In this document: positions 31,597-45,463 of the stretch, one piece after another
Layout of the letters: each line of letters starts with the position of its first letter
Position numbering within the stretch: position 1 is the stretch's first letter
Assembly: GCA_963765765.1 (NCBI GenBank)
Contig: CAVXYC010000018.1
Coordinates: 32,001 to 96,000, forward strand
Length of the DNA: 64,000 nucleotides
DNA from: an uncultured Chloroflexia bacterium
GTDB lineage: Bacteria > Chloroflexota > UBA6077 > JACCZL01
Direction: 5' to 3'
The notes under the pieces: model-generated
What the model saw: only the letters and a program-made list of their open reading frames with translations
Database searches by the model: none
Told to the model about the DNA's origin: nothing
Translations under genes and position numbers: made by a program

Positions 31597-32493
31597 CTAC
31601 GAGCCCAGGTGCTGCTTGAAGAAGGCTAGCATATCGTTCCAGGCAACGGGTGCCTGCTCGGCGTTGTAGCGTTCGGCGTTCGTATCGTTGTTGAAGGCAT
31701 GCTGTGCGCCAGGGTAGATCTTCTTCTCAAAGCTCTTACCCGCGGCGGACATCTCTTGCGTGATCTTGTCGATACCGGCGTTGATCCGCTCGTCAAGCTC
31801 GCCGTAGATGGCAAAGACCGGCGCGGCGATGTTTTCGACCCCCGACTGTGGAGCCGGTCCGTACCACGGCACTGCCGCTCGGATCCGAGTGCCAGCCAGG
31901 GTTGCCACGCGCCAGGTGTAACCGCCGCCCATGCACCAGCCGGTCACGCCCATTCGGCCGCCGTCCACGTCGGGCTGATTCGTTAGCCAATCGAGGGCCG
32001 CCACCAAATCGCGGGCGTTCTGTTCAGGATCACTCTGGCCCAACGCGGCGATGGCGTCGTTCGTATCGGCGAAGGCACCGGTGCCACCCTGTCGTGAAAG
32101 CAGATCTGGAGCAAGGACGATGTAGCCTTCTGAAGCAAGGCGTCGAGCACAATCCTTGGTGTGCTCCACGAGCCCGCGGTTCTCGTGAATCGCGACAATG
32201 GCGGGAAAGCTGCCGTATTCCGTCGGTCGAGCGAGATATCCCTGCAACTCGCCCTGCCCCAGGGCAATCTGCACGTCCATGCTCTCCAGCTCCGCACCGC
32301 CGATGATGGGCCGGATGGCGGCCACACGGGGACGAGTGGAGCCGCCGCGTTCTGCGACCGAGCTAAGTACAAGCGCGGCCTGAGCCTCACCAACCATGCC
32401 CCGTACGCGATGCTCGAGGTCCGCTCGACTGAGAGCGCCGTCCTCGTACTCCTCGATAAATTCATCGATGAGATAGGCCTGGAGATCGTTCAT
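31597..32493 (-). CDS. Dienelactone hydrolase family protein
   Basis: HENRGL, APDLLS, GWCMGG, AQHAFNND. Confidence 0.93.
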   Translation of the reverse strand: MNDLQAYLIDEFIEEYEDGALSRADLEHRVRGMVGEAQAALVLSSVAERGGSTRPRVAAIRPIIGGAELESMDVQIALGQGELQGYLARPTEYGSFPAIVAIHENRGLVEHTKDCARRLASEGYIVLAPDLLSRQGGTGAFADTNDAIAALGQSDPEQNARDLVAALDWLTNQPDVDGGRMGVTGWCMGGGYTWRVATLAGTRIRAAVPWYGPAPQSGVENIAAPVFAIYGELDERINAGIDKITQEMSAAGKSFEKKIYPGAQHAFNNDTNAERYNAEQAPVAWNDMLAFFKQHLGS

Positions 32494-33738: not shown

Positions 33739-34521
33739 CTATGCTCGGTGTTCTACTCCAGCTGGTCGCACTCACGACACGTGCCGCGTGGATGAATGAC
33801 CACCAGATTAAGACCGTTGGGCTCCCCATAGCGTTGTGCCACGCGAAAAACGTCTCCCCCGTGACGTCGCGAACTGAATCGAGATATTGGGCAGTTCGGG
33901 CCGTCGGGCGAATGTGAGCGATCGGCAAGGACCTGCGCCTGGGCAACACTGCTTTGCAATGCAAGCGCCTGCTTCCTTCAATGGATCGGTGTGCAGACGA
34001 GACTTCATCTGACAACGGTGGTGCGCTCCTCAAAACCCTGAGCTCCGATAGCAAAGCCTCAATGGGCCTCATCGAGCCGATCTGGTCGCACACCCATCGT
34101 GATTTCGACGAGTCCGATGTCGCTTGGATAACGAGAGCTGACATTACGTCCGTTACCACACGCGAATCCTCGCGCAGCGTGGTCTCGAGGCGACGTCCAG
34201 AGGTGCCGAGGACGCTCGCCATTCACATCCAAAGCGGCGCTCCGGGGACGTAATCCTTGACGCTTCGCGCACGCTACTCACCATGACTCCAACTTGATGG
34301 ATGTGTGAACACTGACGCTGGTCGAGCGAAGAATCGGGATTACTAACCTAAACGCTTGCGCGTCTGAAGGGCTCCGAATTGATCCTCAATTGCATGGCCA
34401 CCATGGAGGTGTGACTTGCAATGCATCGAATCATCCTCAACACAAGAAAACACCGGACGGGTACTAGACCCAGCGGTGCAAACCTGGCACACTGAGTCGG
34501 AGTTGCGCAACGGAGCTTCAA

Positions 34522-35214
34522 GTGCCCGGTAATGTCGATCTTGACGCCCTCGCTCAATCGGTGGTGCTTCGCGGCCTACCGCGCACCGAGCTCGAGCGGC
34601 TTGCCGCGGTGATGCGCCGCCGTACCTATCGGCGGGCCGAAGTCATCTTCCATCAAGGCGATCCCGGCGAATCGCTTCACGTCGTCTGCCAGGGAAAGTT
34701 GAAGGTCGTCATCACCGGCGACAACGGCGAAGAGGCGGTGCTGGCGATTCTCGGTCCGAGCGACGTCTTTGGAGAAATGGCGATTCTTGACGGCGGTCCC
34801 CGCTCCGCGACAGTGACGGCATTGGAGCAAGTGGAGACCGCGGTTCTGAACCGATCGGATTTCATTCAGCTCCTACGGAGCGCTCCAGCCATGGTGGATG
34901 GACTGCTTGCATCGCTAGCACGAACCATACGACGGGCAGACGAGGATATCGAGGGTCTGATGTTCCTTGACCTCCATGGTCGACTTGCGAGGAAGCTTCT
35001 CGAGCTCGCCAAGACGCACGGGGTGAACGCGGATGGTCGAGTCCTGATTCGTGTTCAGCTCACGCAAGAGGAGCTCGCAGGAATGATTGGGGCCTCACGC
35101 GCAAGCGTGAACAAGATCCTCGGCTACTTCGAGGATCGCGGCGCAATCGAGCGGCAGGGACGCCAGATTCTTGTCTGCAAACCTGACGTTTTGGAACGCC
35201 GCGCGGCTGTTTGA
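34522..35214 (+). CDS. Crp/Fnr family transcriptional regulator
   Basis: IFHQGDPG, FGEMA, PRSAT (cNMP site), LTQEELA.MIGASR HTH. Confidence 0.95.
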   Translation: MPGNVDLDALAQSVVLRGLPRTELERLAAVMRRRTYRRAEVIFHQGDPGESLHVVCQGKLKVVITGDNGEEAVLAILGPSDVFGEMAILDGGPRSATVTALEQVETAVLNRSDFIQLLRSAPAMVDGLLASLARTIRRADEDIEGLMFLDLHGRLARKLLELAKTHGVNADGRVLIRVQLTQEELAGMIGASRASVNKILGYFEDRGAIERQGRQILVCKPDVLERRAAV

Positions 35215-35416
35215 GTCGTTTCCGTTGGGATCCATCGCCACGGTCGGCTTCACATCCTGCTTCAGACTGTCACCATCTCCACAAAGCAGCATGCTGGTGC
35301 ACGGGGCCCGGCTCAGCCTGCGCCACGGGTGATCGAGTGAGTACCATGCTACATCCTGGAGAGTCCGCTTCTGGGATCGACCCGATGGCGGGCGTCGCGC
35401 GGCTGTTCTGGCGGCG

Positions 35417-36691
35417 CTAATTGTCCTGCTGGTCCGCCGGTGAAGCCAACGGCACTTCAGTCATCTGCCAGACGCCCAGGAGCGCAGATACGCTGTGCTG
35501 CACAAAGTCCATCCGCACATACGGCTTCACAACGTCTTGACTCCAAGCCCCGATAAGGCGGTCCGGCCGACGGAATGGAGCCGAATTCTCGTCTGTGTAC
35601 TGAACGCGCATCAGGAACTGGACCGTGCGGCGAGCACCGTTTGCGAGTCGCGACTCGAGCTCGGCGTCACCACGGAGACGCGCTAGCTGCCACGCCGCGA
35701 TGAGCGCTTCCGCCTTGGTAGCCGTTGACGTGTAGTTGACCGGATTTCGCAGTCGAGACGCACCCACCGCCCAGGCATTGCCGTCTCCCTGCGTGTACTG
35801 GTGTCCGAGCATGCTTTCTGCCTGCAGGGAAACAACCTGCACATACGCGGGGTCAGGGACAATCGGGTAAAGCTCAGCCAGCGCCATGGTGAGCCAGTGA
35901 TCCTCGCGTGGGACGCTCATGAGGGAAGGTAGATCGCCATCGCGCACGTGGACGAGATAGTGGGCGGCGCGCTGGGCGTACTTCAGGTAAGGTCCGTCTG
36001 GAAACTGCTGGTCCAGACGAACGAGCGCAAGAAGGGCTTCACCGGGGTAGTAGTCGGAGAACGGTGTGTAGAGACGCCCTCCCTGCGTGGTGCTGTATGA
36101 CTGAAAGTACCTGCCCGGCTCTTCCGGAATTTCCATGGAGAGGAGAAACTCGGCCATCTCTCGAATCTCGCCATCGTAGAGGCTATCTCCTACAACACGG
36201 CGCCGCTCGAGTAGCGCAACCAGCGCAAGGGCCTGAGCACCGAGCTTGCTTCGGTTCGCAAAGACAAACGCGCGACGCCCGTCTTCAACGAGGGGCGATG
36301 AATCGATCATGAAGCGCGTGGCCTTTTCGGCCGCGATTCGTAACGAATCATCACCGAATGCCTCCGTGGCCTGGAACAGCGAATAGGTGACACCGGCATG
36401 CCGGACAGGGTTGTACTTCCCGTTCTCGTATCGATTCGCCTCCGGGTCATAGACATACTGGTACTTGCCGCTGGGCCGAACATTTCTCGCCAGCCACCGC
36501 GCACCGAGCCGCGCGCGCTCGTAGGAGAGGTCCGCGAGCGCCCGGGCGTCGAGCGCCGCCGTGCCGTCGAGGATGGCCTCATCTGCCGGCCCCGCGAGGA
36601 TCGGCGGTGTGACGGCCGAGACGCTGCCCAGCGCCAGAAGTAGTGCGAGCGCCGCGAGGATCAAGCGCCGCATGGGCCCAGCCGTGGTCAT
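35417..36691 (-). CDS. Secreted protein, probable (alpha/alpha)6 toroid fold, function unknown
   Basis: Signal peptide MRRLILAALALLLALGSVSA; motifs YNPVRHAG, LGAQALAL, YYPGEALLAL, DHW, RMDFVQH; ATGA overlap with the upstream gene. Confidence 0.8.
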   Translation of the reverse strand: MTTAGPMRRLILAALALLLALGSVSAVTPPILAGPADEAILDGTAALDARALADLSYERARLGARWLARNVRPSGKYQYVYDPEANRYENGKYNPVRHAGVTYSLFQATEAFGDDSLRIAAEKATRFMIDSSPLVEDGRRAFVFANRSKLGAQALALVALLERRRVVGDSLYDGEIREMAEFLLSMEIPEEPGRYFQSYSTTQGGRLYTPFSDYYPGEALLALVRLDQQFPDGPYLKYAQRAAHYLVHVRDGDLPSLMSVPREDHWLTMALAELYPIVPDPAYVQVVSLQAESMLGHQYTQGDGNAWAVGASRLRNPVNYTSTATKAEALIAAWQLARLRGDAELESRLANGARRTVQFLMRVQYTDENSAPFRRPDRLIGAWSQDVVKPYVRMDFVQHSVSALLGVWQMTEVPLASPADQQDN

Positions 36692-38907
36692 GAAGAGGGT
36701 ACCAGTCCTCGGCCGGCTTCCCAGGTCAGCCGTGGCCCAAGAATAGTACTGACCCGTTGAGCCTCGGCATCCTTGCACGGGCGAGGCTGGAAGCCCACCA
36801 CGCCAGGAGCCGTCACGATGCAGGCTAGCTCAATCGGCTCCAGTCCGTTGGGCCCGAACGCGGTCCGAGCGACCACGCCGTAGCCCGGAAACTCCTCGGT
36901 GAAACGTCCCCTCGAGCCGAAGGTGAAATTGCCGAGCGAGTAAACGACAGGCATGCCGTTCACGACTTCGACCGGCTGCAAACTGTGGGAGCCGTGTCCG
37001 ATGACGAGGTCATAACCGGCCTGCGCCATCTCCTCGGCCAGGCGGCGCTGCTTTGCCGTCACCGGCTCGTAGTTATCTCCCCAATGCAGGTAGCCTACTA
37101 CCCAGCGCGCTCCGGCCGCCTTGGCCAACTCTCGGCCTCGGACCACCGATTCGCTGTCGGCGCTCCTGACGCCGGGTTTCCCAGGGCCGGCAGTCGGGCT
37201 ATTTGGACCGGTCGGACCGAGGGCGACCACGGCGATCCAGCCGTGCGGCGTATCGATGAGGAGTGGCCTGGCTGCCTCGTCGTCGTCCAGGCCGGCGCCG
37301 ACTGCCTGGATGCCGACCTCGCGAAGGTACCGGGTGGTATCCGAGAGGCCCTCCGAGCCTCGATCCAGTGCGTGGTTATTGGCCAGGGTAACGGCCCGGA
37401 ACCCCACTTCGCGCAGCGCGACGGCCGCCCGCGGGTCGATGTTGTAACTGTACCGCGCCTCCGGGACCCGCGGGGTCTGGAGGGTCGTGATCGGCCCTTC
37501 GGCGTTGCCAATGGCGAAGTCGCCGGCCAGCAGTCCGCGGACACGCTCGAAGGGCCAGGTGTAGCCGTGCTCATCGAGGGAGCGCTGCGCGTCATCCCCG
37601 AGCAGGATGTCACCCACCCAGACGACGCGGAAGGGCTCGGCCGCAGGCTGGGCTGAGCCGGCAGTCACGGCGGCGGGCTGACTCTGAGCCGTGGCCGACC
37701 TGGACGCTGAACGACTCTGTGGCTTGGGCACACCGCTGGCTGAACCATTCTGCACATTAGCCGCCGCCGAGCTCGACCGGCTCTCCGCGTTGGCAACCCG
37801 CGGGGCCGGCTGGACGGGTACGCCGGCCCCGCGGGTTGCCCCGTAGTGCGATCCGGCCGCGAATGAGCCGGCGCACAGCAGCGTCACCAGGCCCAACAGG
37901 GCCGCCCGCCGGCCCATGGCTGACGTCCACGCCGGTGAGAGCCGAGGCGGTCGGATGCGGCCAAGCCACTCCCTGACAGAGGCCGGGCGCATCAAGGCCC
38001 CCACGCCCTCTAAGGAGAAGAAGGAGGCATAGGCTATCCCCCACAAGTAGTACTTGAAGGAGATGCCCATGATGAAGTAGATGCCCCAGTGCATTGGAAA
38101 CGCGGCGAGGACCCACAAGTACCCGAGGCGCCGGTTCAGGAGCGCGAGCGGTGCGCCCAGCTCCACGATCAGCGACCCGACGGCGAGGACGGTGAAGAGC
38201 CAGACGTGCTGGTAGAGGACCGCCGCCTGGGCCGGCGGGGGCTGGGCGAGCAGCTCTTTGCGCAGGCCATCCCAGGCCACCTGAAGCAGCAGGGCCTCGC
38301 CGGTTGCCCACCCCCAGCCGTGGGAGCTCGACACCTTGGCGATGCCCGCCAGGAGGTACGATGTGGCTGTCACGGCACAGATCAGCTTGATGGCAAACCC
38401 ATACTGCCACGCACCGGCTGGGTCGGGAAGCGTGGCCGAGGTCGGCCGGCCGCCCCGGCGGCACCAGGCTCTAATCAGGGCATCCAATGAGACCGCGTCG
38501 GCCGCGCGTGTGAGCCCCAGGACTAGAACGTGCGCGGTGACCAGAGCGTCGGGGTGGTTCACGCTGCCCCACGAGGCGAAATACGTCAGCACCGCTAGAA
38601 GCAGTACGGCGAAGAGCGGTCCGGTCACGCGGTACGCAAAGCCGAGAACAAATAGTACGCTGACGATCATCGCCAGCGTGAGCAGGCCAGAGATGGCCTG
38701 TGACGGAAGGGGCGCGGTCAGGAACGAGGTCACTCCGACCGGCTGAAACTGGCTCGCCGGGAGGCGGGCCAGCTCAAGGATCTCGTCGGATCGCCAGTGC
38801 AGCAGCCATACCGCGTACGAGCCGACCAGAATCCGAAGCGCGGCCAGGCGCGCCGCCGGCGCCTCCGCGAACCAGAACCGGTCCAGCCGCCCGATGATAC
38901 TGCCCAC
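36688..38907 (-). CDS. HTTM (vitamin K-dependent carboxylase-like) membrane domain fused to a CapA/PGA_cap metallophosphoesterase domain
   Basis: N-half: LAALRI, VNH, SLD, YLLAGIAK, W..G, ELG, H.GI...MG. C-half: VGD, NAEGP, LANNHALD, HWG, IGHGSH, YSLGNF. Confidence 0.88.
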   Translation of the reverse strand: MGSIIGRLDRFWFAEAPAARLAALRILVGSYAVWLLHWRSDEILELARLPASQFQPVGVTSFLTAPLPSQAISGLLTLAMIVSVLFVLGFAYRVTGPLFAVLLLAVLTYFASWGSVNHPDALVTAHVLVLGLTRAADAVSLDALIRAWCRRGGRPTSATLPDPAGAWQYGFAIKLICAVTATSYLLAGIAKVSSSHGWGWATGEALLLQVAWDGLRKELLAQPPPAQAAVLYQHVWLFTVLAVGSLIVELGAPLALLNRRLGYLWVLAAFPMHWGIYFIMGISFKYYLWGIAYASFFSLEGVGALMRPASVREWLGRIRPPRLSPAWTSAMGRRAALLGLVTLLCAGSFAAGSHYGATRGAGVPVQPAPRVANAESRSSSAAANVQNGSASGVPKPQSRSASRSATAQSQPAAVTAGSAQPAAEPFRVVWVGDILLGDDAQRSLDEHGYTWPFERVRGLLAGDFAIGNAEGPITTLQTPRVPEARYSYNIDPRAAVALREVGFRAVTLANNHALDRGSEGLSDTTRYLREVGIQAVGAGLDDDEAARPLLIDTPHGWIAVVALGPTGPNSPTAGPGKPGVRSADSESVVRGRELAKAAGARWVVGYLHWGDNYEPVTAKQRRLAEEMAQAGYDLVIGHGSHSLQPVEVVNGMPVVYSLGNFTFGSRGRFTEEFPGYGVVARTAFGPNGLEPIELACIVTAPGVVGFQPRPCKDAEAQRVSTILGPRLTWEAGRGLVPSS

Positions 38908-38915
38908 CTTAGCTC

Positions 38916-39476
38916 CTACCGCACCACCGCGCAGGATGCCCGAACCGTCTCCGACCTGGGCAGCTTATTGCCCTTGAGATATTCCGACAGGCTAAAGGTG
39001 CCGGTCATGATCTCTATGCTGACAACCGATCGCAGGGACCGCGGATTCCTCTCGGCTATCCGGGCGCTGACGTTTTGACACAACTGCGCCGACTGTCCCT
39101 GCCTGACCATTTCCCGGACGGTCTCTCGACGGACGCGTGGCAAGCTCCCGCCTGGAGCGATATTGTTGTAATGGATGGCGTACCGCTGGCCCCGCGCGTC
39201 CCGTCCCACGACAAAGTGCTCCGTGTGCCGATCATCGATCTTAGCGGTGAACATCGGGAAATACGAGAGCGGGAAGCTGTCCCGAGGCCGAGCTTGCCAG
39301 TTCTGCACCACGGCCGACAGCATGGCACCGATCAACGCGATGCTGAAAGCGGCCGCTGGCAATTTGCCCATTTCGGCACGCCGCACTGGCCGCGCGGCTA
39401 CATCAGCGGTGACAACGCCTTGCGATGGCTGGACTACCGCGATATCGCTCATAGCGAATTCCGAGCTTGGGGCCAC
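38916..39476 (-). CDS. Membrane-anchored HTTM partner protein (SdpA-like), copy 1
   Basis: One TM helix, then DSFPLSYFPMF; two Cys; ends 8 nt before the HTTM start. Confidence 0.75.
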   Translation of the reverse strand: MAPSSEFAMSDIAVVQPSQGVVTADVAARPVRRAEMGKLPAAAFSIALIGAMLSAVVQNWQARPRDSFPLSYFPMFTAKIDDRHTEHFVVGRDARGQRYAIHYNNIAPGGSLPRVRRETVREMVRQGQSAQLCQNVSARIAERNPRSLRSVVSIEIMTGTFSLSEYLKGNKLPRSETVRASCAVVR

Positions 39477-39681
39477 GATAGCGCAGTATATCGTCCCTTC
39501 CCCGAGTCATGCTGCCGCATACGGAACGCTGCTCTGCTCCCTCTAGTTGTCGTCATCATAGTCACCTGATGGCCATCCAGTGAAGCGCGTAGCCGTCGAC
39601 GATGACTCGAAGAAGCGCCAGCCTGGCCGGGCGCGCATCCCTAATCCAAGAGCGACCCGGCGGTTCGAGTCCAGTCCCACA

Positions 39682-40230
39682 TTAACGTCGCCGCGCAACC
39701 TGACACGTCTCGCGGACGAGCTCGGTTTGAGGATCCTTACTGGCAGTGAAAAACTCATGAAGGTCAAACGTACCGGTGAGAATCTGCACGCTCTGAATTC
39801 TCGAGAGAGCGCCGGTTTGGCGCTGGGCAACCCTCGCGCTTACCAGATACCAGAGCTCTGCAGCTCGACCGGCGCGCACGAATGAATTGATCTGCCGACG
39901 TACCTGGTTCATGACACCGGGCCAGGCCAGCGTGTACGGAATGAGGCTGCGATTGCCCCGTGCATCAACGCCCATAAAGTAGCTGAGCTGCTGCGCATCC
40001 GATCACCCATACGAGAACATCGGATAGTGCGAAAGCGGGAAGTTATCCGCCGGTTCCGGTCGCCAATTCTGAACGACTGGCGACATCACGACGAGAACCG
40101 CCAACAGGCTGAACAACCCGGCGCGCGCCTTCTCTGGATTGACTCGGCTAGCGCCCTCAGCCTCGGCGGCCAGGCCCTCGGTAGCAACCGTAAACTGGCC
40201 GATCACTGAACCACTCATTTTCCGCACCAT
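39682..40230 (-). pseudogene. HTTM partner paralog, copy 2, with in-frame TGA at 40003-40005
   Basis: VVQNWRPEPADNFPLSHYPMF, G.DARG.R and I.TGTF.L.E align to copy 1; the two ORFs are in the same frame. Confidence 0.75.
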
Positions 40231-40355
40231 AACAGAAGCGACGTGTCAATCCCGACACGTCGCTTCCTTGTATCTGGGGACTCATCAACCTAGGCTGACG
40301 GTCCCAACACAACAGCGCTAGCCTGCTCTCAACGAGAACTGCCGACTAGAGATGA

Positions 40356-41048
40356 TTAGTCGTCGTCGTCATCGTCGTCATCGTCGTCATCATCGTCATC
40401 GTCGTCATCATCGTCATCATCGTCATCATCGTCATCATCGTCATCGTCATCGTCGTCATCGTCGTCATCATCGTCGTCATCATCGTCATCATCGTCATCG
40501 TCGTCATCATCGTCATCATCGTCATCATCATCGTCGTCATCATCGTCATCGTCATCATCGTCATCATCGTCATCATCGTCATCATCGTCGTCATCATCGT
40601 CATCGTCATCGTCGTCATCATCGTCGTCATCATCGTCGTCATCATCGTCGTCATCATCACCCGCAGGAGCCGGGACGACGCTGCCGGTCTTGCTCACCAG
40701 GCTCGCTATGAACACTTTCCTGCCTACGTCGTATTGGCCCGTGACTGTGACGACATCGTATAGCGCGGGAGCGAACGGGGGCGCGTTCTGGATAGTGACC
40801 TGCTCAAGCTCGGCCGGATTGGTCAGCGCCGGACGTTCAAGGTTGAAGGTACCCGGCCCCCCTAGACCCAGTGAGACGATTGTCCCCCCGGTGGTCTCCA
40901 CCGGGCCCAGCTGCGCCGCCGGTGCGGCATGGACGTGCTTGATTGCCGGCGCCATGCCAAACGACACGGCGAGAACAACACCAAATATTGCCAGCGCGCG
41001 GCTTCCCGCGAGGGGCAACAGACGGAAAGCGGGGATGAACTTCCGCAT
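40356..41048 (-). CDS. Secreted protein with a C-terminal homopolymer of 100 Asp
   Basis: GGAGG RBS, ATG 41048, signal peptide ending VHA-A, about 85-aa beta-rich domain, then 100 GAC/GAT codons and TAA. Confidence 0.88.
   Translation of the reverse strand: MRKFIPAFRLLPLAGSRALAIFGVVLAVSFGMAPAIKHVHAAPAAQLGPVETTGGTIVSLGLGGPGTFNLERPALTNPAELEQVTIQNAPPFAPALYDVVTVTGQYDVGRKVFIASLVSKTGSVVPAPAGDDDDDDDDDDDDDDDDDDDDDDDDDDDDDDDDDDDDDDDDDDDDDDDDDDDDDDDDDDDDDDDDDDDDDDDDDDDDDDDDDDDDDDDDDDDDDDDDDDDD
40359..40658 (-). repeat. 300-bp (GAY)100 trinucleotide tract
   Basis: Only GAC and GAT triplets, irregularly mixed. Confidence 0.97.
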
Positions 41049-41378
41049 GCGATAAACCTCCACGTCCCAAAAGCTTGGGCGTACATAATGTGCTGGGGAC
41101 GGGACAGCTAGGTCGTCCGACTTCCCCGCTTCTACCATATTAGCTGAACGTCCATGGCTTTACTGCATCCGCTAGTATCAATTTCGTTGCTAAAGGAGCC
41201 ATTTCACCTCGAGCTCGGTATCAACATCATGGGTGAATTCCACCGCTCTCATCGTCATGCGAGAAGACTCCGACCCGCGCACATAGCCCCTTCCAGTCGC
41301 TTCGGTGGCGGTAGCCAGAGAGCCCTTCTGCTTCGATTACGCAGGGATCGCTTACGCGTTCTGGTACCATCGGCGCGT

Positions 41379-41778
41379 ATGAGTCCGCCTAGCCTGATCC
41401 TGCTCTTCGACGGCACCTGAGGGTTCTGCACTCGCACCGTGCGCTGGGTTCGGGCGCACGATGCCGCCGGCCGTGTGCTGGCCCTCCCGAATCAGACCCC
41501 CGGTATCCTCGAGCGCTACAGGATCACCCGCGAGGATGCAGACCGTGAGGTTTGGGCCGTGGACATCACCGGCCGGCACGTTCGGCGGCGCCGCGGCAAT
41601 CAACAGGGTGCTCGTGGATCTCGCCGGCCCATGGGCAATGCTCGGCGCCGCGTATCGGCTGCCGCCCGTCCGCTGGGCCGAGAACCTCGGGTATGCGTGG
41701 GTTGCCCGGAATCGGCACCGGTTTAGCCGCTGGGGCGTGACGCCGGAGTGCCAGGAGCCTGGCGTCTCCTGCGGTTGA
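41379..41778 (+). CDS. DCC1/DUF393 thiol-disulfide oxidoreductase, candidate selenoprotein (one frameshift near 41575)
   Basis: LILLFDGT(TGA)GFCTR.V.W...HD matches DxxCxxC; GAAA...L and Y.WVARNRHR in the next frame. Confidence 0.85.
41438..41460 (+). promoter_or_regulatory. Candidate bacterial SECIS hairpin
   Basis: Stem cgtgcgct / ggcgcacg with loop GGGUUCG; stem begins 17 nt after TGA 41418-41420. Confidence 0.6.
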
Positions 41779-42128
41779 ATCTCCCGGGCGTTGGCTCTCG
41801 GCTCGTGCCGCATCCCCATCCTTCTGTGCATGCGCTTGCTTGTGTCCGCCAGCACCCATGCGATGAGCGCCGCGCCTATAGCCCGCTAGCCGACCTGGAG
41901 ATGATCCACGCCCCGGCCAGCACCCACATTTGCCCGGGACATGCTCACCGGTACCCCGCTCGTTGTCTTGATGTTATTTACAGTCGGCTCGCGGGCTAGC
42001 TCCCTGGCTGACTCAAGAGTCGCTCGTGCCAACGCATGGGATCCCACTTCCTGGCTAGTGGACGAGTGCCGGTGAAAGCACCGGATCCGCAAACAACGAG
42101 GATAGGGCTGGGTCTCTCAAACAACAAC

Positions 42129-42158
42129 AGGGGTCGGCGTGTGCACACGCCGACCCCT
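42129..42158 (-). terminator. Rho-independent terminator of the D/N/G-tail gene
   Basis: aggggtcggcgtgtgcacacgccgacccct followed on the minus strand by gttgttgttt. Confidence 0.75.
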
Positions 42159-42184
42159 TGAAGTATCCCGCGAACGTTTGCTCG

Positions 42185-42673
42185 TTAGTCGTTATCGTTG
42201 CCGTCGTCGTTATCGTTTCCGCCATCGTCGTTGTCATCGCCGCCGTCGTTGTCGTTGTTGTCCCCGCCTCCGCTACTCCGTACCGGGGCGGGGGCGGCGT
42301 TGCCCGACGAGGTCATGGACGTCGCCCGGAAGATCTTGGTGTCCGTATCATAATTGCCCGTGATGGAGAGAATTTCTGAGGGAATAACCAACGACGCCTG
42401 CGCCGTCTCGACGACCAGCTCCTCGAGCTGCGCCGGGTTGGTGATCGCCGGCCGCTCGGCATTGAAGCGAACCACACCTCCCGCCGCAATGATTGTCCCA
42501 GGAACCACCGTTGCGGTGAACGTCTCCACCGGGCCGATAATGGCTGACGGGGCCGCGTCGGCGCGCGTAGCCACCGATGCGGCTACGCCACCAATTGCCA
42601 TGGCAAAAATGCCTGCCACGGCGATTGCGGCACGCAATCCACTCATCATCTTATCCACTCCAGCGATACGCAT
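42185..42673 (-). CDS. Secreted paralog of the poly-Asp protein with an Asp/Asn/Gly tail
   Basis: Signal peptide ending ADA-A; shares GPVET, FN.ERPA.TNPA.LE and TG.YD...K.F.A; tail GGGDNNDNDGGDDNDDGGNDNDDGNDND. Confidence 0.85.
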   Translation of the reverse strand: MRIAGVDKMMSGLRAAIAVAGIFAMAIGGVAASVATRADAAPSAIIGPVETFTATVVPGTIIAAGGVVRFNAERPAITNPAQLEELVVETAQASLVIPSEILSITGNYDTDTKIFRATSMTSSGNAAPAPVRSSGGGDNNDNDGGDDNDDGGNDNDDGNDND

Positions 42674-42832
42674 CACTACCTCATAAGCTCCGCGCATGTG
42701 GACCCTCTCGGTCCAGACATATACACCCTTGAGCCATCTTACCGGGATGACGGTGCCCGGCCAGACTAACTCGAGCTGGGATTGACTCTCCTGCAGGAAA
42801 CGCTCAGGATCCGGGCGCCACGGCAGTGGAGC

Positions 42833-44278
42833 CTAGCGGGCGCCGCCTGCGGCCATGGCAACGCCTGACGTTCGGCGAGAGGGGGCGCTTACGCCCAGCA
42901 GCCCCAGCCCTAGGAGTATGCCCATCGCGGTGGCCGCCTGGGAGAAGCCCATGAGATACCCCGGCACCCCTGGCATCGCGGCGATGGCGGCACCGAGGAA
43001 CGCACTGGATAAGGAGACGCCTATCGCGTGTCCGAACTGGCGCGTGAGCTCCGTGAGTCCGCCAACGAACCCGCGCTGATCAACCGTGCGCAAGGCCGAT
43101 CACGTAGGTGTTGTTGATCGACGTAAATGCGCCCAGCCCGGCGCCCAGCATGGCGCTAATCGGGAACAGCATTGGATAGGGCAGCCACGCGCCGAGCTGT
43201 CCCAGGAGAATCAGGCCAGTCGCCATCATTCCCATTGTGATGAGCGCCAGGACGAAGGTTGGTCTGCGGGAGTAGATCCAACCACCGAGCACTGCCGAAA
43301 CGAGCATGAACATCTGCTGTACCAGCACGAGATGCCCCGTATCAGTGGGCGTCATGCCTCGTCCCCGCTCGAGAAGAAATGGCAGTAGAACGCCAGTAGC
43401 CAACATGCTCATGTGAGCAAGACCGTTGGCGATAACTCCACCCGTCAGTTTCCAATCACCGAGCAATGAGAAGCGCACTAGCGGAACTTTCATGTGGAGC
43501 TGGCGATACACAAACGCGGTGAACAACGCCAGACTCGCGAGGTGCATAGAGATGTGGTAGGGAGCGCCAGCTTCGAACGTCTCCGGACCGTCATGCAAAT
43601 GATTCATGCCCGTAAGAAGCAATCCGACCGCGCCAAAAAGCGTAAGAGCACTCAACCAGTCCACTCGCACCTTGTCAGCGCGACGCGGCACCAGATCGTA
43701 GCGAGAGCAAATGTACGCGGCGGCGATACCAACGGGGACTGGAATGAGAAAGGAGAGGCGCCAGCCAGCGCCCTCTGCGAGCAGCGTGCTCAACCACACG
43801 CCCGTCAGAGACGCAAGCCCGGAAGTCATGGTCAGTAGGCCCACCGCCGTGGCTCGGCTACTCCCCGGGAACGTCTGCGCAATAATGGCCAGCGTACTGC
43901 CCAGAATCATTGCCGAGCCCACGCCCTGAATAGCGCGGGCCGTGAGAAGCATGACGAAATCCGGCAACAATGCCGCGATGACACTCCCTACCGCGAAGAC
44001 GAGTGCGCCACTTCCGAAAACACGACCGTGCCCCACGCCATCGCCCAGCCGGCCGGTCAGCACCGAACCCACGAGAAACAGGAAATAGGCGTTCATTACC
44101 CATGCGCCGCCCTCAACGGGCACGTTCAGATCATGTGTGATGGTGGGCAAAATGGCAGAAACCGGTGCCATGGCCCAACCGGCAATGAAGTAGCCGGCGC
44201 ATACAGTGGCCAGGACGGCTCTGGGAGAGGAGGGAGGGAGACGGATCTGGGAGCGAGAGAGAGGTTCACAAAAGTCAT
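42833..44278 (-). CDS. DHA2-type MFS transporter (frameshifted near both ends)
   Basis: WVMNAY, GRLGDGVG, ARAIQGVGSA; C-terminal RQFG.AIG in another frame. Confidence 0.85.
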
Positions 44279-44391
44279 TGTGGCACAGGTATGGGCGACC
44301 GGTCTATGACCAGATCCCAGCGATCAGTGCCGAGTCATGAGCGATGAGCACTCCGAGTGCTACCATCGGCAGCGCGAGGAGAGCAGCTCTG

Positions 44392-45463
44392 ATGACACGT
44401 TCGCATCGTATTGTGGTGATTCCGGGCGACAGCATTGGCCCGGAAATCGTCGAGTCCGGATTACGCATTGTGGAAGCCGCCCGCGAGCACGTGGGCGGTT
44501 TCGACCTGCAGATCGATCAGCACTCCGCTGGCGCGGGCCACTATCGCCAGTACGGTCGGAATATCGATCCGGAGACGCTCGAGGCCTGCCGAACCGCGGA
44601 TGCGGTGATCAAGGGCCCGGTAGGGCATCCTGACGTTCGCAACCCGGACGGCACCGAGGCAGGTCTGTTGGGCGGCGTACTACGACTGGGCCTGGATCTC
44701 TTTGCCAACATCCGCCGGTTAAGCTCTGGCCGGGCGTGAAGGCGCCGGTCACCTGGCAGCCGGGCGAGATCGACTACGTAATTGTCCGTGAGAACACCGA
44801 GGGTCTGTACGCCTCACGAGGCCTGGGCGTCTCCAATAACTGGGCCGCATCAGACATTCTGTTCATGACTCGGCCTGGCGTGGAGCGCGTCTCCCGAGCG
44901 GCGTTCGAGCTGGCGCGCAAGCGCCAGGGGGCACCCTCGGACGGTGCGCATCGCGTCACATGTGTGGAGAAGAGTAACGTGCTCAAGAGCATGGCGTTCT
45001 TCAAGGCCATATTTCTCGAGATCGCTGAGGAGTATCCGGATATCGAGCATGAGACCCTCTACTCCGACGCGGCTGCGCAAGCACTGGTACTCAACCCCAG
45101 CCACTTTGACGTGCTGGTGATGGAGAACTTTCTCGGCGATTTACTGAGCGACCTGGGCGGCGGCACCGTTGGGCGGGATCGGCATGTGCCCGTCCGGTAA
45201 TATCGGCGCCGACGCCGCGGTATTCGAGCCAATCCACGGGAGCGCGCCCTCGCTGGGCGGCGTTAAACCGAGCGAACCCTGTGGCTCAGGTACTGTCGTT
45301 TTCGATGCTGCTCACGCATATCGGAGAGGGCGATGCCGCAGCTGCGGTTGAACACGGCGTGGGAGCCGCGCTGGCTGACGGCTCACTCACCATCGCGCCC
45401 GACGGCTGTCCCGTGGGCGGAACGCGCGCGGCCGCAGACGCCATCATCGAGCGCATCGCCTGA
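44392..45463 (+). CDS. Isocitrate/isopropylmalate/tartrate dehydrogenase family protein (3 apparent frameshifts)
   Basis: [50 protein letters not shown] across successive frames. Confidence 0.88.

Follow-up and report, generated by a model that had tools for sequence, protein, structure and literature searches.

A secreted protein with a tail of 100 aspartates, encoded beside carboxylase- and epimerase-related membrane enzymes, suggests a gene-encoded polyanion that is altered outside the cell

Introduction

To our knowledge, relatives of the vitamin K carboxylase GGCX are widespread in bacteria, and almost none of them has a known substrate. Among bacterial acidic polymers, cyanophycin has a backbone of polyaspartate. 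Here we describe a locus of an uncultured Chloroflexia bacterium where the gene of a secreted protein with a C-terminal run of 100 aspartates (Asp100) lies beside genes of membrane enzymes that are related to carboxylases (HTTM domain) and to epimerases (PGA_cap domain). This arrangement suggests a gene-encoded polyanion that is altered outside the cell. The DNA analysed, which we call the window, is a stretch of 64,000 nucleotides (nt), positions 32,001 to 96,000 of contig CAVXYC010000018.1 (C18 below) of assembly GCA_963765765.1; coordinates given without a contig refer to it. The source bin has 6.49 Mb in 33 contigs, with a completeness of 91.8% and a contamination of 6.85%.

Several described systems are close to parts of this locus. 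GGCX is reported to act on Glu-rich regions, and the bacterial protein MloH to carboxylate an aspartyl residue (PMC12647623; 10.64898/2026.08.19.745780). Bacterial HTTM proteins are described also in systems without acidic substrates, such as that of linaridin with crdG (PMC9927463), and a preprint predicts that a DUF5819 protein and an HTTM-DCC protein together rebuild a GGCX-like complex (10.64898/2026.08.19.745780). On the side of the PGA_cap domain, MslH is reported to be a Ca-dependent epimerase of the C-terminal residue of a peptide (PMC10406935), and its discoverers propose that CapA epimerises Glu within poly-gamma-glutamate (PGA) (PMC8179263). For Bacillus subtilis PGA, D/L ratios of 5/95 with pgsBC without pgsA and of 75/25 with pgsBCA are given (PMC6029982). 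In the literature searched we found no bacterial system with a polyaspartate tail and no link between HTTM and CapA.

Results

The polyaspartate gene and its cassette

The open reading frame (ORF) at 40356..41138 of the minus strand encodes 260 residues. Residues 161-260 are an unbroken run of 100 Asp followed by the stop codon, exactly as counted in the preliminary description of this DNA. The likely start is M31 at 41048, ahead of a segment that by eye resembles a signal peptide. With this start the gene spans 40356..41048, and its product would begin with a signal peptide, continue with about 95 residues of conserved domain and end in the tail. The tract itself (40359..40658, minus strand, 300 nt) abuts the stop codon and is written in 53 GAT and 47 GAC codons. 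Their order is irregular, so that the tract is no simple DNA repeat.

Downstream on the minus strand follow two genes of small membrane-anchored proteins, which we call partner copy 2 (39682..40230) and partner copy 1 (38916..39476), then the gene of the HTTM-PGA_cap fusion with 739 residues (36688..38907) and that of an exported all-helical protein with 424 residues, probably an (alpha/alpha)6 toroid (35417..36691). The gap between partner copy 1 and the fusion is 8 nt, and the TGA stop of the fusion overlaps the ATG of the toroid gene as ATGA (36688-36691). This order had been proposed from the letters alone, and the ORFs and Pfam matches bear it out. The four large ORFs, of the polyaspartate protein, partner copy 1, the fusion and the toroid protein, are intact.

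The genome of another species of the same genus (G001, the sister genome below) is syntenic over about 11 kb upstream, with 73-88% protein identity. There the gene of a Crp regulator is followed, on the plus strand, by the ortholog of the polyaspartate gene, one partner gene and the HTTM-PGA_cap gene, after which the contig ends. The ortholog has a tail of 67 Asp (40 GAC, 27 GAT), which likewise runs up to the stop codon. Compared with the conserved flank, the cassette block is inverted; Crp is adjacent to it in both genomes, in different relative orientation. Since the block is inverted as a whole, the cassette moves as a unit, and the earlier proposal of a conserved gene unit holds within the genus. 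Hence the arrangement is more than chance: the order of the genes recurs in the sister genome, together with a tail of 67 Asp.

Between the polyaspartate gene and the first partner gene lies a stem-loop of 13-15 base pairs (40235..40266). Its region folds with z = -4.8, and none of 200 shuffles folds equally well; in the sister genome, the same intergenic position holds two strong hairpins of different sequence. The stem-loop may act as an attenuator or as a 3' stabiliser. A scan for sigma-70 promoters gave 1 site against 1.9 expected, and no Rfam family matches over 34000-44500. The HTTM-PGA_cap gene exceeds the window (0.61) in G+C content, with 0.67 for both of its domains and 0.72 for the linker between them; the neighbouring partner and toroid genes have 0.59-0.62.

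A family of secreted proteins with Asp-rich tails

A single-sequence search of 5.8 billion proteins with the polyaspartate protein returned only 1 relative. A family profile was built from the conserved domain with the tails removed. Over 66 genomes of the class it was positive in 2, both of the same genus, with 4 copies here and 2 in the sister genome; in a large protein database it found 23 proteins. All 23 have ends rich in D, E, N, G and S, which make up 63-100% of the last 30 residues (D/E 23-97%). In an alignment of 7 sequences, which includes the window, C14 and C26 proteins and overlaps with the 23 database matches, A42, P43, E51, V58, F68, R72, P73, P78, E82, G104 and F113 are invariant. 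The Asp-tail protein thus belongs to a new family, whose proteins are secreted and end in D-rich tails. Every member examined has such a tail.

The length and purity of the tail set two members apart. The longest Asp run is at most 11 residues in the 23 database relatives and at most 18 in the other paralogs of this genome, thus long pure polyaspartate (100 and 67 residues) is confined to the two cassette-adjacent orthologs. A reading of the D/N/G tails as repeated DxDxDG calcium loops was rejected, with one or more such motifs in only 12 of the 23 relatives.

When the whole genome was scanned for runs of D/E, further ORFs with polyaspartate tails appeared on contigs C14, C26 and C17. Two of them are paralogs, C14:375530-376249 (locus L074) with runs of 18 and 11 Asp, and C26:32510-33214 (L075) with runs of 10, 11 and 13; both have an insertion of 30-40 residues and unrelated, fragmented surroundings. 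The third, C17:71594-72184 (L076), is an unrelated membrane-anchored protein that contains Cys and has 13 Asp as its C-terminus. Since it is unrelated, C-terminal polyaspartate in this organism spans more than one family.

Fold comparison relates the HTTM domain to the GGCX core

The HTTM domain comprises residues 1-318 of the fusion (37954..38907, minus strand). The HTTM model (PF05090) matches residues 1-336 alone with 29.5 bits against a cut-off of 27.7, and the whole fusion with 24.7 bits; among 12 aligned relatives, 7 match it at E<=0.01. No further HTTM was found in a search of the genome. A structural model from the 12-sequence alignment has a predicted local distance difference test score (pLDDT) of 82.7. 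The top 15 Foldseek matches of this model are all GGCX, with template modelling (TM) scores of 0.54-0.60. With VIA-align, the domain superimposes on residues 41-330 of GGCX with Z 18.2 and a root mean square deviation of 3.8 Å over 266 residues. The 16 GGCX entries score Z 13.1-18.2, and the next, unrelated chain 8.9. Sequence identity to GGCX is 17-21%; searches of PDB sequences with the domain, its profile and a Bacteroidota relative found nothing, and GGCX was reached via the fold comparison only. The relation of HTTM to the GGCX core, which the preliminary description states, is thus confirmed by two fold comparisons.

H118 and K191, the latter in the motif AGIAK, are invariant in the 12 relatives. 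In the numbering of GGCX, the active site is described with His160, Ala214 and the catalytic base Lys218 (PMC12647623). Compared by residue numbers only, the spacing A187-K191 equals that of Ala214-Lys218, and H118 fits His160. Tyr395 and Met401 of GGCX, which lie beyond residue 330, are also reported to contribute to the active site (PMC12647623), and the HTTM domain has no counterpart of GGCX beyond residue 330. As an observation on the family, an HTTM relative of 912 residues (P0011, 37% identity) is fused to Peptidase_M48, which points to peptide substrates.

The PGA_cap domain resembles the epimerase MslH

The PGA_cap domain, of the CapA/MslH type with a calcineurin fold, comprises residues 428-664 (36916..37626, minus strand) and comes after an extra membrane helix and a linker rich in Ala, Pro and Ser. 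It matches PF09587 over profile positions 2-254 of 255 with E 1e-57 and 196 bits, against a cut-off of 27, and is the only PGA_cap domain found in a search of the genome. Its sole PDB relatives are the MslH entries 8gq9, 8gqa and 8itg, found with E 3e-14 by phmmer and 1.9e-39 by the profile.

For MslH, the dyads His88/Asp91 and His295/Asp11 and the ligands Glu44, Asn87, His259 and His261 are described (PMC10406935). Seven of these 8 catalytic or metal residues are aligned and kept here (D11, E44, N87, H88, D91, H259, H295); the position of His261 falls in a 3-residue insertion of MslH that has no counterpart in the PGA_cap domain. PgsB (TIGR04012) was not found in the genome, at 91.8% completeness, while the control was positive in B. 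subtilis. Because 7 of 8 MslH residues are kept and PgsB is missing, the domain is better read as a putative peptide epimerase of the MslH/CapA type than as a capsule part. The HTTM-CapA fusion named in the preliminary description stands as a fusion with a PGA_cap match; as a piece of a capsule system it is less well explained. We also note a PGA_cap homolog in a genome of the same family (G009:C29:29531-30655, locus L007) that is read through three in-frame TGA codons.

The toroid protein belongs to a network with acidic-homopolymer synthetases

The protein encoded last in the cassette has a signal-like N-terminus and matches no Pfam or NCBIfam model. With HMMER, 2898 relatives were detected among 1.84 billion representatives at E<=1e-3, and a Pfam scan covered 88 of the best 150. 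Among these 88, ATP-grasp occurs in 7, 4 of which also match the N-domain of cyanophycin synthetase; of the 18 closest relatives 17 were scanned, and these include 6 of the 7, with 45-55% identity. PGA_cap occurs in 2 of the 88 (P0086 and P0106, the latter also with Mur-ligase M and C domains), AMMECR1 in 3, and a peptidase domain in 1. The remaining scanned relatives have nothing or weak matches to GH127, pectate lyase and GlcNAc 2-epimerase, all (alpha/alpha)6-toroid families. Accordingly, of the "coupled secreted helical barrel" described before, the coupling by ATGA is seen, but the barrel has weak support, from these matches in relatives.

The fusions with ATP-grasp (P0021, P0022, P0025, P0028, P0032, P0036) have about 1000-1100 residues, or 721 and 920 in two of them, and the N-domain is matched in 4 of these 6. 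P0025 and P0032 are named as proteins of Thermomicrobiales metagenome-assembled genomes. Judged by domain content, the toroid with a cyanophycin-synthetase-like N-domain and ATP-grasp appears to be an undescribed synthetase architecture.

Other fusions connect the same modules. P0009, from public nr, is an HTTM domain fused to a toroid domain with 55% identity over 386 residues to our toroid protein, and a second HTTM-toroid fusion occurs in an unpublished genome (G006), which also has two DCC genes and a CphA-like ORF. In the metagenome locus L051, a toroid protein adjoins a stand-alone PGA_cap, both with lipoprotein-like leaders. Full-length HTTM-PGA_cap fusions outside the genus are rare, with four clusters (P0003-P0006) of metagenome proteins at 48-59% identity. 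Through these fusions and adjacencies, HTTM, PGA_cap and toroid form one network. In other settings, two of the three modules, toroid and PGA_cap, are joined to synthetases of acidic homopolymers.

The HTTM partner and the loci of HTTM genes elsewhere

The two partner copies are paralogous, each with an N-terminal membrane helix in the alignment. In copy 1 the helix is followed by a domain of about 140 residues with the motif FPLSY(F/Y)PMF. Copy 2 has an in-frame TGA at 40003-40005, in a column that is Arg in at least 90% of 14 aligned relatives, and it is the closer ortholog of the single copy of the sister genome (52-56% identity); the preliminary description does not mention this TGA. For comparison we collected 20 HTTM loci, 15 of them in reference genomes, which span several phyla, and 5 in metagenomes; a partner homolog lies directly upstream of the HTTM gene in all 20.

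No known family covers the partner. The partner proteins of the window have no NCBIfam match at E<=1 and no Pfam match at E<=10, all 14 aligned relatives lack a match to SdpA or DUF5819 (PF19136) at E<=1, the partner profile has chance-level matches only in PDB (E >= 0.54), and the 30 nearest Atlas clusters are all unnamed. A DUF5819 search of 151 genomes of the phylum, including this one, found nothing, but its controls were silent. The preliminary description had called these proteins SdpA-like: the pair, the N-terminal helix and the place upstream of HTTM are confirmed, but the assignment to SdpA is not. On the alignments and loci, the partner proteins make up an unnamed family tied to HTTM. 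By analogy, the partner probably stands in for the missing cap and lumenal part of GGCX.

Elsewhere the neighbours of the pair vary. A fused ATP-binding cassette (ABC) exporter is present in 7 of 12 scanned loci; others have S8 subtilase, M14 peptidase and CHAT/TPR proteins, and DCC fused or adjacent. HTTM-DCC fusions make up 3 of the 12 aligned HTTM relatives, and six proteins of this kind were found in a database search. Polyaspartate tracts in the Bacteroidota loci L020 and L025 were considered as support and dismissed: they are not tails but N-terminal linkers of S8 subtilase lipoproteins, which belong to the neighbouring operon of a sigma factor at a distance of 5-7 kb, and L020 and L025, being related, are not independent. 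The HTTM operon of these loci (L020:1-11076, L025:1-11088) comprises CHAT/TPR, DUF2490, a 348-residue protein, the partner, HTTM-DCC and the ABC exporter. Beside it lies a trio of sigma-factor, TPR and S8-subtilase-lipoprotein genes, and the subtilase has a linker of 20-30 Asp after the lipobox. In two further loci (L018:5611-7503 and L052:1-1449) the ABC-exporter genes directly upstream of the partner end in about 10 D/E residues, with ABC domains confirmed by Pfam in L018 and recognised by eye in L052.

The DCC gene and the flanks

A gene of a DCC1-like thiol-disulfide oxidoreductase (41379..41778, plus strand, start ATG at 41379) is divergent from the cassette. It is the only DCC of the genome and lies 2.5 kb from the only HTTM. 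A TGA at 41418 takes the place of the first Cys of the CxxC motif, and the match to the Pfam profile changes frame between its positions 57 and 63 (about 41565-41580), a frameshift absent from the preliminary description. The UxxC reading given before thus finds its TGA, but in a broken frame. The organism can decode UGA as selenocysteine (Sec), since it has tRNA-Sec (anticodon tca, C15:168062-168147), selB and selA (C14:159641-162949). For the selenocysteine insertion sequence, a hairpin is present 18-46 nt after the TGA, yet the region folds no better than shuffles (z = +0.8). No DCC was found in the sister genome, which is 92% complete. Because of the frameshift and in-frame TGA here and the lack of a match there, the case for DCC as an obligatory supplier of redox is weak, which lessens its earlier casting as the source of thiol redox.

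The other flanking genes of the preliminary description are both present. A polyaspartate paralog with a D/N/G tail (42185..42697, minus strand) has a terminator-like hairpin of its own at 42129-42158, and a regulator of the Crp/Fnr family (34522..35214, plus strand) borders the cassette on the other side. In the sister genome, the ortholog of the paralog adjoins an intact gene of a major facilitator superfamily (MFS) transporter; in the window the MFS gene (42833-44171) is in two frames. An isopropylmalate/tartrate-dehydrogenase-like gene (44344-45463) is in four ORFs, and UvrA-like pieces on C14 of the same genome resemble these broken genes. The genome has either many assembly indel errors or many pseudogenes. 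With these window genes broken, the TGA of partner copy 2 and the frameshift of DCC may likewise be assembly errors or decay.

Discussion

We suggest that an extracytoplasmic complex tailors the exported polyaspartate tail. We hold this reading tentatively, a little short of an even chance; the chemistry, the tail as the substrate and the role are what we infer from the genes and their company. Plausibly, all globular parts of the cassette proteins are outside the cytoplasmic membrane, and by analogy every enzyme module points to acidic peptide substrates. Epimerisation by PGA_cap would be the best-founded chemistry, and an oxidative modification or carboxylation by HTTM is a possibility. Carboxylation of Asp, as the preliminary description had it, is possible by the same analogies and is not favoured over epimerisation.

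The proposed sequence of events is as follows. The substrate, a small conserved domain with a tail of 100 L-Asp, would be exported by the Sec protein-export pathway, and the stem-loop after its gene would ensure an excess of this structural gene relative to those of the enzymes. Toroid and PGA_cap, as a pair, would then bind the acidic tail and convert L-Asp to D-Asp. The pair of HTTM and partner may add a modification that depends on quinone and O2, for example carboxylation. What results would be a polyanion that resists proteases and binds cations, either on the cell surface or set free, and thus a ribosomal counterpart of PGA or of the cyanophycin backbone. In its boldest form, the idea is that a ribosomal homopolymer replaces the non-ribosomal polymerase of a system like that of PGA or cyanophycin, and that the GGCX-like/CapA-type fusion with a polyaspartate-binding toroid turns the tail into a polyanion of D-Asp and/or beta-carboxy-Asp. 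We regard the idea in this complete form as unlikely.

Several observations weigh against a tailored tail. The linkage of polyaspartate and enzymes is seen in one genus, in two related genomes and effectively as a single event. Near partner and HTTM, an acidic-tail gene was found in none of 19 loci outside the genus, with the upstream contig too short to judge in L050, L004/L031, L019, L027 and L052; outside the genus, the outcome that the preliminary description had named as refuting, HTTM cassettes that lack acidic-tail neighbours, is thus observed. Other loci, with exporters and peptidases and without a D-tail, indicate that the HTTM pair has another, more general substrate class. The three other members of the Asp-tail family in this genome (the D/N/G paralog and those on C14 and C26) lie away from such enzymes. 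On the side of the enzymes, the PGA_cap domain scores 69.5 bits against a cut-off of 700 with the MslH equivalog model (NF038314), thus it is not an MslH ortholog, and MslH itself is reported to act solely on the C-terminal residue (PMC10406935). A single-sequence model of the toroid protein is unusable (pLDDT 40.9), so that its fold rests on the weak family matches in relatives. Finally, the partner copy that is orthologous to the gene of the sister genome is the one with the TGA, and this TGA, the DCC frameshift and the other broken genes of the window mean assembly errors or a decaying locus.

These points lead to the alternative that the genes are neighbours without a substrate relation. 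The D-tail proteins would then be stand-alone secreted proteins for cation binding or hydration, and the enzymes would have another target, such as a small peptide that went unseen, a polymer of the envelope or a lipid. The spread of partner and HTTM across phyla among unrelated neighbours fits this alternative, as do the family members without enzymes beside them (3 of 4 in this genome), the own terminator of the D/N/G paralog and the D-rich tails of all 23 database relatives, which make the tail a family trait independent of the cassette. What speaks against mere adjacency is that the block of polyaspartate, partner and HTTM-PGA_cap genes stays intact through an inversion in the sister species, and that long pure polyaspartate occurs only in the cassette-adjacent orthologs. 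Moreover, toroid and PGA_cap are tied elsewhere to synthetases of acidic poly-amino acids, but no such synthetase was found in this genome; the search for CphA-like genes found none here and its control was silent. No alternative source of polymer was found in the 92%-complete genome either, which has no PgsB and one each of PGA_cap, HTTM and DCC. We consider a substrate-free neighbourhood quite possible, and on these grounds lean away from it. A narrower alternative keeps the tail as substrate and makes HTTM the main enzyme: it would carboxylate tail Asp to beta-carboxyaspartate with menaquinol, O2 and CO2, with a DCC selenoprotein recycling the quinone epoxide and PGA_cap only handling the polymer. 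The fold of the GGCX core, the invariant K191 and H118 with the matching spacing, the reported aspartyl precedent of MloH (PMC12647623; 10.64898/2026.08.19.745780), the common HTTM-DCC fusions and the closeness of the sole DCC and HTTM in an organism with selenocysteine machinery speak for it. But the DCC gene is frameshifted here and was not found in the sister genome, the DNA after its TGA shows no particular fold, the region with the reported active-site residues Tyr395 and Met401 (PMC12647623) has no counterpart in HTTM, and HTTM proteins are described also where substrates are not acidic, as with linaridin crdG (PMC9927463). Taken together, this scheme is improbable in our view.

An artefact has to be weighed as well: the polyaspartate might come from misassembly of low-complexity DNA, or the cassette might be a decaying cluster of pseudogenes. 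The broken partner copy 2, DCC, MFS and isopropylmalate-dehydrogenase-like genes and the contamination of the bin would be in line with this. However, the architecture recurs, with 67 Asp, in the independently assembled sister species, the mixed GAT and GAC codons are in frame with the conserved N-domain and end at a stop codon, and the four large ORFs are intact. With these observations an artefact is very hard to reconcile, and we give it only a slight probability. We therefore return to the tailored tail as the reading that we prefer.

With its tail of 100 Asp, the locus offers a concrete and easily assayed candidate substrate for a bacterial HTTM enzyme, and it allows the proposal that proteins of the CapA/PgsA type are polymer epimerases to be put to the test. 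It also links an uncharacterised toroid family of 2898 representative proteins to the biology of acidic poly-amino acids. The D-tail family, the unnamed family of HTTM partners and the link between toroid and synthetases are findings in their own right, and a gene-encoded polyaspartate of defined length is of interest for biomineralisation, scale inhibition and metal binding. If the proposal is true, no bacterial HTTM enzyme would have had a protein substrate assigned to it before, and a "capsule polymer" templated by a gene would likewise be a first.

Last but not least, we compare the cassette with the known systems. It shares with GGCX the HTTM fold of residues 41-330 and, on the proposed reading, an active side that is extracytoplasmic or lumenal and acidic secreted substrates; the His and Lys that are invariant in the HTTM family are candidate counterparts of His160 and Lys218. 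Unlike GGCX, the cassette HTTM is without the cap and lumenal domain and has a separate membrane-anchored partner, the candidate target is Asp and not Glu, and no propeptide-like recognition element was identified. The bacterial systems of MloH (malonomycin), SdpAB (Bacillus), linaridin HTTM and DUF5819 with HTTM-DCC are similar in that a small anchored protein is directly upstream of HTTM and DCC is associated. They differ in that the partner here matches neither SdpA nor DUF5819, that the cassette HTTM is fused to PGA_cap and not to DCC, and that what would be modified is the homopolymeric tail of a 230-residue protein and not a small peptide or a polyketide-peptide hybrid.

With PgsBCA(E)/CapBCA(E) and MslH, as they are described (PMC6029982; PMC8179263), the cassette has in common a PGA_cap domain, the tether to the membrane, the extracytoplasmic site and the logic of an acidic homopolymer. 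In contrast to PgsBCA(E)/CapBCA(E), there is no PgsB, the polymer would be an alpha-linked ribosomal polyaspartate, and PGA_cap is fused to HTTM. A protein of similar shape is the laminin-binding protein of chicken muscle, reported as secreted with a C-terminal run of 33 Asp (PMC2115193); it comes from a eukaryote, its run is a third as long, and no modification genes are linked to it. The product of cyanophycin synthetase (CphA1) also has a homopolymeric alpha-polyaspartate backbone, and the closest relatives of the toroid are fused to a Cyanophycin_syn N-domain and ATP-grasp; unlike that backbone, the polyaspartate of the cassette is encoded by a gene, is part of an exported protein and is linked to a folded domain.

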